Translations under genes and position numbers: made by a program
Assembly: GCA_964016885.1 (NCBI GenBank)
Contig: OZ024745.1
Location: forward strand, 97,216,001 to 97,280,000
Direction: 5' to 3'
Length of the DNA stretch: 64,000 nucleotides
Source of the DNA: Eledone cirrhosa
Taxonomy: Eukaryota
Part shown: piece after piece, positions 4,150 through 47,862 of the stretch
Numbering within the stretch: position 1 is the stretch's first letter
How the letters are laid out: the number at the start of each line of letters is the position of its first letter
The notes under the pieces: generated by a model
Seen by the model: the letters and a program-made list of their open reading frames with translations, nothing else
Database searches by the model: none
Told to the model about the DNA's origin: nothing

Positions 4150-4408
4150 ATTTAAAATAAAGTTAAATAAAAGTCAAATGATTAAAATTTAGCTTCGTTT
4201 ATTACTGCTATATATATATTTCAGTGACAGCCATCTTTGGCTGTGACCTCTTCAGGCAGTTTGAATTAGTATGGTAATTTTAATAATTTGACTTCTATTT
4301 AACTTCATTTTACACTACTCCGGAGTAACCAAACCAACCTGCGCACTTCATCGAGTGCTCCAGCCTGCATACTGAGGTGTTGGTATACAACCAACATAAA
4401 CTCAAAAT
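4150..4408 (-). mobile_element. Fold-back HHR element in (TA)n (same family as 50881-51400)
   Basis: Minus-sense arm 4150-4275 with HHR; plus-sense copy of the 3' end (4276-4310) plus ~95-nt tail; (TA)n on both sides. Confidence 0.75.
4204..4260 (-). ncRNA. Minimal type I hammerhead ribozyme
   Basis: Minus strand: actgc-CTGAAGA-ggtcacagcca-aaga-tggctgtcact-GAAA-(ta)n-TA-gcagt. Confidence 0.82.
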
Positions 4409-4584
4409 ATATATATATATATATATATATATATATATATTCAGGGGTTGACCGTCGAAGAAACAATACCACGCGTCCGGCCGGACTCTTGAATGAAGAA
4501 ATTTTTTGAGGGGAAGAACGTATTGGATTTTTCAAAATTTAAAGAGTTTTCTTTTAGGAACGTTCATTGTTTTTATAGGTTTTA

Positions 4585-4642
4585 CCGTCTGAAGAGATTC
4601 GGCTACCATAACTGATAGTTGTCAGCGAAATATGTATAACGG
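4585..4642 (+). ncRNA. Minimal type I hammerhead ribozyme in a ~250 bp insert (4441-4692) within (TA)n
   Basis: ccgt-CTGAAGA-[cggctacca/tgatagttg, base mismatched]-GAAA-tatgta-TA-acgg. Confidence 0.7.
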
Positions 4643-5254
4643 AGTTTTAAATAAACCTGAATCAACTGAATATGGCCTCCAATCTTTTAACAATATATAT
4701 CAATATAAATATATAAATATATAAATATATGTGTGTGTGGAGAGAGAGAGATGGGGGGGGAAGAAAGGAGAGAATAAGTGAGATTGGGAGAGGAGAGAGA
4801 GAGAGATAGGGAGAGGAGAGAAATAGAAAGAGGGGGGGAGAGAGGGGGAGAGGAGGGAGAGAGAGAGAGATAGGGAGAGGAGAGAAAGAAAGAGATAGGG
4901 AGAGGAGAGAAAGAGAGAGGGGGGGAGAGAGGGAGAGGAGAGAAAGAGAGAGAGAGAGAGAGAGAGAGAGAGAGAGAGAGAGAGAGAGAGAGAGAGAGAG
5001 AGGGAAAGGAGGGAGAGAGAGATTCATATACAAATATTTTAATCGTTCGGGGTTGAAAAATATTGAGCATTGCCGCTACCACCGCCACCCCATTATCATC
5101 ACCACTCTATAGATCACACACACGGACACATACACACATACTTGCACACATACTGTCACCTCTATCCAGCATGACGGACATTTTACACGAAATATACTAC
5201 AGCCTTAAAATAATAGATGTATAAATCAATCCAAACGCATCTGTTTATTTTCAG

Positions 5255-5441
5255 AGTGTTATCATTATCGATGTACAAGGATCTCTTGGCCAGTGGTAGT
5301 TCCGATAACACGATCAAAGTATGGAGTTTACCAACAGGACAGTTGAAGCAAACACTTGTAGGTCACACAAAAAGCGTTTGGTGTGTCCACCTCTTTACCC
5401 ATAATATTGTAATCAGTGGCTCACATGACACGACCATCAGG
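5255..5441 (+). CDS. Internal exon of a WD40-repeat protein (F-box/WD-like beta-propeller)
   Basis: Acceptor tttattttcag ends at 5254 and donor AGG|gtaag starts at 5442. Translation VLSLSMYKDLLASGSSDNTIKVWSLPTGQLKQTLVGHTKSVWCVHLFTHNIVISGSHDTTIR has canonical WD40 motifs (LASGSxDxTIKVW, L.GH...V). Ends in phase 0. Confidence 0.92.
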
Positions 5442-5749
5442 GTAAGACTTAATAACAATATTTCAATTCTTCTATGCGGGGTTAGTTCAGCAGTTATATT
5501 CATTTGTACACGTGGGCGCACACGTGTGTGTGAATACATACATACGTACTTATATACATACACACATACATACATACATACATACATACATACATACATA
5601 CATACATACATACATACATACGTACATACATAGATAAATACATGCATACATGCATACACACATACATACATACATACATACATACATACATACATACATA
5701 CATACATACATACATACATACATACATACATACATACATACATACATAC

Positions 5750-44944: not shown

Positions 44945-45184
44945 CATATATTTTGATTATGTGAATGTCTTCATTTATTAATATTTTGAATAATATTAAT
45001 AACTCCAGAAAACTTCAATGTAGAGTGCTTTTAATCTATTGTAAAACTATATTCATTGAGTATTCAATGAACCATATTAATCTTTGGTTATATATATATA
45101 TATATATATATATATATATATATATAGAGAGAGAGAGAGAGAGAGAGAGAGAGAGAGAGAGAGAGAGAGATGAAAAATCCCGAT

Positions 45185-45630
45185 CTTCTTCTTCGTTTTC
45201 TTCTTCTTCGTTTTCTTCTTCTTCTTCTTTTTCTTCTTCTTCTTCTTCTTCTTCTTCTTCTTCTTCTTCTTCTTCTTCTTCTTCTTCTTCTTCTTGAGAG
45301 GGTCGTGTGGATAGAGTCCTCAAACACTCCTTCCAGCAGGTCCTGCCAGAAGTAACCATCTTCAACTGATCCGACTGGATCCCCAAGCATGGACAGCCAA
45401 GCTCGTGGATGTTATCCAACCATCTTACCCGGAGTCTACCCCTGGGTCTCCTACCTCTTGGTTTAGCCTGTAAAATTTGTCCAGCGATTCTTTGCTAAGA
45501 CATTCTAACCACATGCCCATAGTATCAAGCTGTGATCTCTCAATTTGGAGAAGTTGTGGTTCTACCTGGAGTGACTCTCTGATCTCTGAGCTATGTACTT
45601 TATCGAGTAACGTTACTCCATGAAGGTCAA
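45185..45630 (-). mobile_element. RTE LINE 3' fragment with (GAA)n tail
   Basis: GVTLLDKVHSSEIRESLQVEP..IERSQL / YGHVVRM..GRRPRGRLRVRWLDNI...WKECLRTLSTRPSQ(E)n. Confidence 0.85.
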
Positions 45631-46869
45631 ATAGATTAGGGACCTTCCTATCCACCTGAGTGGATTTGATCTTATAAAATATTCAAATATTGCCGGTAAT
45701 AATGATTCCTATTATCTTAATTAATTCAAACGATATTTAATGATCAAATTTAAGAACTGGTAAATGTGTCACCTTGTGTTCTTAGGTAGTTGTGTCATAA
45801 TTACTATCAATTGTTAAATTTTATAATATATTACTTACAACTAATTATAATACGTATTTTCATGTCATGAGATGGCAACATGAATGGACCTATTATTTTT
45901 CTCTAAAAACATTTTTTCCGATTCCGCCCTGCCCGTCCCTTCAATCTTTCTAATTTCTCATTCTTTCTTCTGATGAAGGACTGACGTCCAAAACATTAAG
46001 ACCCTCTTCCTGCAATGTCAAGCGTTAAACTAATATATTCCTTCCGTATACTCTACAGATCGTGTTGTTATTTCTGTTTGCCTTTTATATATATATATAT
46101 ATATGTGTGTGTGTGTGTGTGTGGGTGTGTGTGTGTGTGTGTGTATAGATATATACATGTGTGTGTGTGTGCGTGCGTGCATGTGTGTGTGCGTGTGTGA
46201 TTGTGTGTGAGAGAGAGGGTGAGTGCTTCTGTGTGTGAAAGTATGTTTCAGTTATATAAATACACAAGCACACATCTATACTTACATATATATGTATATA
46301 TACATATACATATATATATATATATATATATATATATATATATATATATATATATATATATATACATATACATATACATATATATATATATATATATATA
46401 TATATATATATATATATATATATATATAATAATAATAAGGGTTGACAGACCCAGCATAATGGGCAATGTAAGATACATTACCAGAGTCTACACATAGTTA
46501 TTTGCCTCAACACAACACTCGTAAAACGGGTGCCTATAAGGTTCCCGGACTCGACTTTCTGCCGCACTAATGCAGCAGTAAGGTGCACTGCACCATCTGT
46601 CTGCATATATTATGCAACAATGCACAATCGGCTTATGCGGCTTCATCAGCGGGTATCGCCTAATCAATAACCAATTTATCGACAGAATCCAACCACCGGC
46701 CCATGCGGGTGATGACTGTTTGTGACAACTGACACGGTAAAGGAATTAGCAACTGGCAACCGATAGGACTCTATCTCTCAACGAGCCACTGATTTATATA
46801 TATTTATATATATATATATATATATATATATATATATATATATATATATATATATATATATATATATAT

Positions 46870-47123
46870 ATTGTTATACTTTGGGAGGGTCATGTTGCCA
46901 ATAAGAAACACACGCACCAGTTGCTTTCACTTCAGTTTATTATATATTTATAAATTTCTGGTTGGTTGGTTGGTTCCACAACCAGATAGTTGTTTATATA
47001 TAGTCATAGTCCTTTCGTCACACACTCTGTGACCTCTTCAGTGACTGGGAATTCCTTTCTTTGTTTCTGTGCCTCTCCTTTGTTCTGTCCTACGCCATTT
47101 TGCTAAACAAATTCAGAAACGAA
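46870..47123 (-). mobile_element. Solo pLTR fragment of the 36755-39260 PLE family, HHR 47002-47046
   Basis: Near-identical to 36811-37066, joined to ~24 nt of the inverted tail (ctaaacaaattcagaaacg); (TA)n both sides. Confidence 0.9.
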
Positions 47124-47646
47124 ATATATATATATATATATATATATATATATATATATATATATATATATATAAAACATGAGAAGAAAGAGGAATACTG
47201 CGTGGTTGCACATGGGTTACATATTATAAAATTAGTCCCTCGTCAAGGATTTGCCAACCATCATTGGTATTCCATCGCATTAAAAATCATATACCTCAGG
47301 TTGGTGCGAGCAATAACTAAAAAAAGCTATTGGGACAAGTGAGTCGCGTAAAGCGAGTGAGACAAGTAAACAACATAGAAGGATAAAAGCAAACCGAAGA
47401 TAGGAAAAAAAACAAGCAACATGGTTATCCGGTCAGCATAATCTGGGTGAATTTCATGAGCGTTCAGAATACAGACCGTCCGACGTGAGTGAGATGTGAG
47501 CAAGAAAGGACCCCACTACCAACGAAACGGGAGGAAGTGAGAAGGGGAGAAACAGAGAGTGAGTGAGGGGAAGTGCGAGGAAGAGGTCAGTCGAGAGAAA
47601 GTGTAACTGGCAGAGGGGGCGAAAGAAGGTGTGTGTGTGAGTGTGT

Positions 47647-47862
47647 AAAAGTTCTATTTAAATTGTTGGGATACAACAAGCAAATATTTTTATAACTGAT
47701 ATAAAGCACTCAACAAATATTTGGAGTAAAAATACGATATTAACAAATGGAAACTATATTTATAAAACCATATTTATTTCATTATACATATTTCAAGGAC
47801 ACCAAGTTAAATTATGGTGCGCTTTCATCAGATAAAATATAATATAGAACAGTTTTATAAAT
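47647..47862 (-). mobile_element. Diverged copy of the 18946 family, HHR 47776-47838
   Basis: attttat-CTGATGA-aagcgcacca..tggtgtcctt-GAAA-tatgta-TA-atgaaat. Confidence 0.85.

Follow-up and report, generated by a model that had tools for sequence, protein, structure and literature searches.

Here we describe a short sequence motif that recurs in the mobile elements of a 64-kb stretch of Eledone cirrhosa DNA (GenBank assembly GCA_964016885.1, contig OZ024745.1, forward-strand positions 97,216,001 to 97,280,000), which is called the window throughout. The motif, ACTCC-N(11-55)-GAGTGCT, belongs to Penelope-like elements (PLEs) of the Hydra clade, which carry hammerhead ribozymes in their end repeats (pseudo-long terminal repeats, pLTRs). 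We read it as the first of two tandem hairpins, each standing a few nucleotides from a point at which inserted copies end, and the pair probably gives the reverse transcriptase (RT) its two internal starting sites.

The motif in the window and in the genome

An initial annotation of the window had listed six sites of the motif and a GAGTACT variant near 55847(-). All six were borne out in coordinates and strand, and the variant was confirmed at 55847-55865(-). The features are given below in window positions; hairpin 1 is the motif, and short and long arms or ends stop just before hairpin 1 and hairpin 2 (its second copy), respectively.

4153 to 4408: family C Hydra-PLE insertion in (TA)n, two arms head-to-head; the short arm is inverted, (-), and ends 4 nt 5' of the expected hairpin 1 start; the long arm, (+), ends at 4408, 7 nt 5' of the reference hairpin 2
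4201 to 4255 (-): type I hammerhead core, family C, on the inverted short arm; the scan gave the 5' coordinate, and the other limit is approximate
4317 to 4359 (+): hairpin 1, family C; the bulge-closing base is A in this copy and G in the family
18938 to 19510: family A insertion; long arm (-) ending at 18938, 3 nt 5' of the reference hairpin 2, short arm (+) ending at about 19510
19005 to 19027 (-): hairpin 1, family A; ACUC/GAGU helix, UC bulge, CAA/UUG upper stem, GCU tail
19083 to 19131 (-): hammerhead, family A long arm, loop III TATGTA
19415 to 19463 (+): hammerhead, family A short arm; the copy stops just before the hairpin and none follows
24523 to 24572 (+): hammerhead of an older copy related to E. 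cirrhosa family H, loop III TGTGCA
24647 to 24713 (+): hairpin 1 with a long apical insert, H-like family; the copy meets TA at about 24787
34681 to 35068: family B insertion with a long arm (-) and a short arm inverted to (+), limits approximate; the short arm has a damaged hammerhead at 34964, and its end, unclassified in the automated mapping, was assigned by eye
34737 to 34764 (-): hairpin 1, family B; ACUC/GAGU, UU bulge, CAGU/ACUG upper stem
34815 to 34869 (-): hammerhead, family B long arm, loop III TGCGCA
44889 to 44938 (+): hammerhead, family E, loop III TATATA
45002 to 45029 (+): hairpin 1, family E; the copy meets (TA)n at about 45089
47705 to 47727 (-): hairpin 1, second family A copy, with a long-type end at about 47648
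47783 to 47831 (-): hammerhead, second family A copy, loop III TATGTA
51301 to 51402 (+): family C arm with hammerhead; its end is of the short type, 4 nt 5' of hairpin 1, and the hairpin is not included
55799 to 55992: family K (Hydra) insertion with its arms head-to-head, the long one (-) and the short one (+), by eye, limits approximate
55847 to 55865 (-): hairpin 1, family K, GAGTACT variant, with a U-A bulge-closing pair (other family K copies use a different ACTC, at 55877-55880)

The motif is far more frequent than chance would have it. Its N8-38 pattern matches five times in the window (0.13 expected; none of 100 shuffles reached five). The expected enrichment downstream of hammerheads was equally clear, as the 3' half of the hammerhead followed by the motif gave 37,689 matches across the 3.0-Gb E. 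cirrhosa genome and the reversed-pattern control gave none; a long-loop version of this combined pattern matches 8,936 times, against 191 in the control. The sites were also said to stand in sequences that do not align. This holds for 14 of the 15 flank pairs (z up to 2.1) and fails for 19005 and 47705, which are 93% identical (z 15.2); because these two belong to one family, the six sites represent five families.

The motif does not lie past the 3' end of its element, as first described: it begins ~50-75 nt downstream of the site of hammerhead cleavage, and about 50-75 nt separate its end from the (TA)n junction. The copy at 4317 has lost its own hammerhead through 5' truncation, and the core at 4255(-) is part of the inverted arm of the same insertion.

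The motif was reported to be missing from hammerhead families with a 4-nt loop III, and none of 61 such copies in the E. cirrhosa loci fetched has it within 250 nt. Among 30 loci of the window's 4-nt-loop family at 36.8-39.3 kb it matched once (locus L055), and that match is a hairpin of the family H type. The 6-nt loop III first proposed as its correlate proved incidental. Carriers in other animals mostly have a loop III of 7-8 nt, and the family K hammerhead near 55847 combines a U3-A8 core variant with a long helix III, so that loop length was rejected as a cause. The true correlate of the motif is the Hydra clade.

The carriers are Hydra-clade PLEs

The longer copies are pLTR-ORF-pLTR tandems that reach an open reading frame (ORF) of 800 amino acids (L061:5192-7591). 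This single ORF encodes an RT with a YRDD core, an FTYFG region towards the C terminus, and a C-terminal endonuclease (EN) of the GIY-YIG type; a Pfam search with the Hydra ORF gave no match. Over the RT region, the family B ORF is about 43-56% identical to its counterparts in families A, C, and K. A DKT motif (a modified DKG) is found in E. cirrhosa families A, B, and K, and the CxCx5C linker reads CNCRIKNKC in family B, CNCRDRSKC in A, and CNCRNPESC in C. The CxxC and CxH motifs, which flank the conserved E and N of the endonuclease, appear as CNLCLNE and CLH in family B and as CDLCAEE and CRH in family A. Of the N-terminal RWK motif, the E. cirrhosa families retain RW with T, I, or R as third residue, and most ORFs from other animals have RWK. 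The carriers also combine a hammerhead in the pLTR with insertion into (TA)n.

Judged by these sequence features (RW, DKT, CxCx5C, CxxC, CxH, hammerheads, and (TA)n targeting), the carriers agree with the clade that Craig et al. (2021, PMC8557442) call Hydra, the comparison with the published Hydra sequences having been made at motif level and by eye. The inverted 5' copy and the tail at one end only are further features in common with that clade. The label Nematis was ruled out, since CX2-5CxxC with DKG marks that clade and the carriers have CxCx5C with DKT, which are Hydra states (PMC8557442). The E. cirrhosa elements differ in size: Hydra elements are described as generally short (<3 kb) with tails of 30-40 bp, whereas the E. 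cirrhosa units measure about 3.5-3.7 kb by repeat spacing and their tails 78-99 nt. A unit from another assembly (L112) spans about 2.4 kb.

The predicted fold of the Hydra protein (mean pLDDT 87.4) comes closest to telomerase RT (TERT), which takes Foldseek ranks 1-3 (E 5e-8 to 3e-7) and aligns over 303 residues (VIA Z 16.3, rmsd 4.3), as is expected of any PLE. The viral contigs searched held no relatives. Hydra PLEs with hammerheads and (TA)n also occur in contigs filed as bacterial metagenome-assembled genomes (L227-L237), which are probably animal host DNA.

A tandem pair of hairpins upstream of the ORF

To avoid selection on the motif itself, elements from other animals were sampled by an RT-derived pattern in metagenome and genome collections (at least 123 and 12 stretches, respectively, with flanks for 80 of the at least 123). 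In 25 of the 5' regions obtained, a start codon was found by pattern with at least 95 nt upstream; L176 was excluded as too short. Two tandem copies of the hairpin, of the general form RCUC-Y…R-UN-GAGY-RCU (usually GCUC/GAGC-ACU), lie between hammerhead and ATG, giving the order hammerhead, hairpin 1, spacer, hairpin 2, ATG. Among the matches listed, 19 of the 25 Hydra 5' regions have both copies and four have one (two are cut by a contig end and two mutated). The hairpin pattern had no match in 221 ORF windows.

In E. cirrhosa, hairpin 2 is visible only at tandem read-through junctions, being located just outside each inserted copy. The initial annotation had seen hairpin 1 correctly and missed this second copy. 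The junctions of families A, B, C, and K contain it, and inspection by eye also showed it in rows of the E- and H-like type; the read-through junction pattern has 2,027 matches against 388 in the control. In families A, B, C, and K it follows hairpin 1 after 78-99 nt and ends 19-62 nt before the ATG (12-62 nt over all elements). The Hydra consensus sequences of PMC8557442, inspected by eye, contain two hairpins in Hydra-1_Ajap, hairpin 1 in Hydra-2_Ajap and Hydra-2_Amil, and variants in Hydra-1_Crog and Hydra-1_Obim.

The spacer holds a third, sequence-variable hairpin in most families, e.g., at 18950-18990(-) and 4375-4400(+) in the window. The family K end repeat has moreover given rise to a tandem array with a 257-nt repeat that includes both hairpins and the ORF start (L250/L251), and to a hairpin 1 minisatellite with a repeat of about 55 nt (L242-L244). 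Introns are known from the 5' part of PLEs, and a word resembling a splice donor (GGTAYGT/GGTATGC) does occur ~40-50 nt upstream of the family A and E hammerheads, e.g., at 44856-44863, with no acceptor identified. A reading of the motif itself as a splice site was rejected, as no conserved AG or canonical donor is found there across families.

Covariation of the hairpin stems

For the analysis of pairing, 71 non-redundant hairpins were anchored by the RCTC and GAGYRCT sequences alone. Two mis-anchored ones (L085, L255) are counted in the 71 and were removed for the later set of 69. The first three upper pairs are formed in 68/71, 54/67, and 46/53 hairpins, against 51.5, 31.3, and 21.6 in shuffles, and this run of pairs appears only if a 2-nt bulge is allowed; bulges of 0, 1, or 3 nt show none. 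The bulge reads UU in 51 hairpins, UA in 11, and UC in 9, and it is closed by C-G in 44 of the 71 and by U-A in 23. Because shuffles ignore kinship, the switches between C-G and U-A were counted on an RT tree of 26 rows, where they number six (9 of the 23 inner branches are weakly supported).

The core helix, for which the initial annotation had noted that ACTC can pair with GAGT, indeed varies in pairs. A-U and G-C replace each other, U-A also occurs at pair 1 and A-U at pair 3, and UCUC/GAGA and GCAC/GUGC are found as variants. The 3' anchor, GAGYRCTC, is near-palindromic, with C following RCT in 32/71.

Insertion ends follow the hairpins

We mapped 194 distinct copy ends to eight read-through references. 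Of these ends, 69 are short, their last match falling 2-10 nt short of hairpin 1 (mode 4-5), and 67 are long, stopping 3-11 nt short of hairpin 2 (mode 3); another 20 read through, and 38 fit none of these classes. The wider offsets belong mostly to copies diverged from their reference. Where ends run into microsatellite-like sequence, 133 of 138 are of the short or long class. The same positions are used in other animals, where copies end 2-6 nt before hairpin 1 (L106, L108, L229, L231, L235) or 0-3 nt before hairpin 2 (L114, L156); rows of reference L234 were ignored as (TA)n artefacts. AU-rich sequence is common throughout the tail, and the ends track the hairpins across families even though the hairpin spacing varies from about 57 to 99 nt. 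In the 10 nt 5' of the hairpin, TATA or ATAT is present in 32 of 69 cases, compared to 4-6 of 69 in distal windows.

The two classes are strictly combined. In each of the 34 head-to-head insertions with both ends classified, 13 from family K, a long end is combined with a short one. Since most loci had been fetched via hairpin 1, 30 family C loci were also picked by their short end, and these have 20 long partners within 1.5 kb, two more within about 4 kb, and no short partner (L283 and L090 are the same insertion). Both arms extend through the hammerhead, and they meet at variable, often palindromic junctions (by eye). In the small insertions of family K, the arms mostly stop at nearly one point inside stem II, which has a long loop next to a stable helix III (L239:1366-1470, L254, L255, L079, and 55799-55992 in the window).

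As ends lie just 5' of either hairpin 1 or hairpin 2, the PLE "tail" corresponds to hairpin 1 plus the spacer. Each hairpin stands just outside the segment whose end it marks, so it has to be recognised on the donor molecule rather than on the product.

Interpretation and rival explanations

Taken together, these data make the motif hairpin 1 of a tandem covarying pair in the Hydra PLE end repeat (pLTR/5' untranslated region, UTR), and we consider it probable that the pair acts in the RNA as two binding sites placing the RT at two internal starts, ~3-7 nt 5' of each hairpin. A clade-specific cis element, acting as an RT/EN binding hairpin or RT initiation signal, had been suggested from the start, and this is supported in the form of a bulged, covarying Hydra-clade hairpin at a fixed short distance from insertion ends, the likely function being to position the RT for priming on both target strands.

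The RT-endonuclease, probably as two copies, would bind both hairpins and nick both strands of the (TA)n target. Each target 3' end could then anneal to the AU residues preceding one hairpin, and copying would proceed towards the RNA 5' end, with one RT active site per target strand. The two cDNAs would finally be joined head-to-head, often at a palindrome or microhomology, which would leave inverted pLTRs and a tail (hairpin 1 plus spacer) at one end only. Under this scheme only read-through (partial-tandem) transcripts would hold both signals. We infer protein binding, the use of a dimer, and RNA as the folding strand.

Several observations weigh against this reading. Two of the 25 5' regions from other animals have no hairpin among the matches listed (one is 5'-truncated and one diverged). 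The test for the folding strand is weak: inner pairs show 15 G-U against 5 A-C (binomial p 0.063), the terminal pair shows 3 A-C against 1 G-U, and folding probabilities show no difference between the two strands or between parameters for RNA and DNA. Taken singly, the hairpins have low stability (z -2.15 to +0.78), and in several of the predicted minimum-energy structures the segments are paired in another way. The end classes used 12-nt windows set after the ends had been viewed, and 38 of the 194 rows fall outside them, though just five of these abut a microsatellite. Of the 30 loci selected by short end, seven are without a partner within about 4 kb and one is unclassified. Exact-pattern genome counts for family C are unequal (1,329 short, 907 long), to which pattern stringency may contribute, and some TA enrichment also occurs at -20..-11 (16/69).

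The best-surviving alternative, which we nevertheless deem unlikely, is that the hairpins are recognition or cleavage signals for the endonuclease in DNA (extruded or single-stranded), so that ends are cut from a longer transposition intermediate and are not RT starts. Craig et al. (PMC8557442) explain the tail by EN-mediated resolution, Frangieh et al. (2024, PMC11167929) relate that recognition by the D. virilis EN required the tail, and GAGYRCTC is close to a palindrome; the strand and RNA-versus-DNA tests gave no discrimination. On the other hand, the ends meet (TA)n with AT microhomology, as target priming predicts, the fixed, one-sided 2-nt bulge with G-U pairs fits RNA better, and the ends of PAc agree with RT starts measured in vitro (PMC11167929).

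The hairpins might instead be only operators for ribonucleoprotein assembly or translation control, bound by the protein on its own 5' UTR, with the ends set separately by AU-rich microhomology. The nearness of hairpin 2 to the ATG (12-62 nt) and the AU microhomology 5' of both hairpins would suit such a role. We hold it improbable, as the tail is AU-rich throughout and yet the ends follow the hairpins at spacings of about 57 to 99 nt, and strict long and short pairing also speaks against it.

Quite improbable, too, is a function as stop (template-boundary) signals on an antisense template, where a hairpin with bound protein would halt the RT a few bases ahead of it, the end of the cDNA then being joined to (TA)n. 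An antisense template with self-priming has been argued for rotifer PLEs (PMC3846280), junction palindromes are seen in several insertions, and the strand test is weak. PAc, however, starts on sense RNA (PMC11167929), the inner pairs lean to sense G-U (15:5), and one end of each kind per insertion would be left without a simple reason. Finally, a double-stranded DNA element of an internal promoter (e.g., the GAGYRCTC palindrome read by a host factor), an option already raised in the initial annotation, is highly improbable despite PLE promoters being located in the pLTR (PMC11167929, PMC8557442) and the 3' anchor being near-palindromic, because neither compensatory changes between two distant segments nor a fixed link to insertion ends is expected of a factor-binding site.

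Relation to known systems

The reading of the hairpins as RT-positioning sites invites comparison with other systems in which RNA structure guides a polymerase. Telomerase RNA has an internal template whose limits are set by RNA structure with bound protein. The Hydra hairpins are situated 3' of the start and would signal where copying begins rather than where it stops; no homology to telomerase RNA, in sequence or structure, is claimed for them. Hepadnaviral epsilon and the stem-loops of non-LTR 3' UTRs are cases of a bulged stem-loop that attracts its cognate RT in cis and determines where synthesis begins. In epsilon, the bulge is the template for protein priming, and the stem-loops of LINEs are part of the 3' end that is copied, whereas the Hydra hairpins occur in two copies, each outside the segment whose end it marks. 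In L1 twin priming, reportedly described by Ostertag and Kazazian in 2001, both target strands are said to prime on one RNA, yielding an inverted 5' segment; the second L1 priming site would be opportunistic, and the Hydra sites are fixed, each flanked by a dedicated hairpin.

A close parallel is Poseidon PAc (PMC11167929), whose genomic ends coincide with two internal RT starts. Both target strands are cut and extended, and the template is uncleaved RNA, hammerhead cleavage being dispensable; the Hydra arms, both of which run through the hammerhead, parallel this. In both systems two adjacent end classes bracket an optional tail, although the PAc starts were measured and the Hydra ends are genomic only, and both-strand extension and uncleaved template were shown for PAc, for which a dimer was predicted. 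They differ in that PAc initiates inside an AC-rich stem-loop within the ORF, whereas the Hydra ends lie in the AU-rich 5' UTR, 5' of duplicated covarying hairpins. The 96-nt PAc RNA (PMC11167929 Fig. S1B) contains no GAGYRCU by eye.

Already known are the hammerheads of PLEs (PMC4209133), the Hydra clade with its one-sided tail (PMC8557442), and the two starts in PAc (PMC11167929). The excerpts of Craig et al. (PMC8557442) give no account of the hairpin pair or of a link between hairpins and ends, and those of a retrozyme preprint (10.64898/2026.07.22.740005) do not describe the pair either. A literature search, whose coverage left out most subscription journals, gave no description of a hairpin pair, a fixed offset from two ends, or strict long and short pairing. 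Rfam 15 covariance models gave no credible match on L112:150-420 or L239:1250-1700, and in a scan of the window the best 150 of 248 rows all fell below the gathering score; both missed the hammerheads as well, so that sensitivity was limited. As far as the sources searched go, the duplicated covarying hairpin, its fixed offset from two ends, and the strict long and short pairing are new here.

Other elements in the window

The region 36800-39270 contains a 4-nt-loop PLE with a different ORF (YVDD; 486-aa frame at 37400-38860), which we take to be Neptune-like. This element (also at L313, L318, and L034) has two end classes about 57 nt apart, with a few copies ending in between. ATCG and a candidate hairpin, unrelated in sequence, come after either end. 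We regard this as a lead towards each clade having its own signal pair. Short tandem or dispersed hammerhead units at 32624, 33053, 36403, 48881, 49319, and 49759 (loop III CTAG/CTAA) are retrozyme-like and lack the motif; at 48640-49862 their period is 438. The window further holds two broken ORF sets of non-LTR retrotransposons, at 12840-16625(+) and 60116-63687(-) (RT with a C-terminal nuclease-like part; APE and RT), and a short WD40-like coding stretch at 5217-5450(+), possibly a host exon.

Significance for Penelope-like elements

Penelope-like RTs are the sister group of telomerase, and the question addressed here is how they choose a template, and why they insert in inverted form with a tail that may or may not be present. 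The PAc study (Frangieh et al. 2024, PMC11167929) placed two starts but not the RNA signal, for which the hairpins are a specific candidate, conserved across divergent Hydra families from several animal-derived assemblies. The predictions reach down to the base pair, which makes the question directly testable. In addition, the hairpins offer a nucleotide marker by which Hydra fragments, of which the E. cirrhosa genome has tens of thousands, can be annotated at their ends.

In its boldest form, which is possible though we would not yet call it probable, Hydra PLEs would encode a programmed twin-priming device, in which two telomerase-like RT-endonucleases sit on two conserved hairpins of one RNA and begin copying on both strands of a (TA)n break, each from a fixed site inside the RNA. 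If true, this would account for three features across PLEs, namely inverted pLTRs, a tail on one side only, and a dependence on partial tandems; each clade would then have its own hairpin pair, and a portable two-hairpin cassette would define the internal template.

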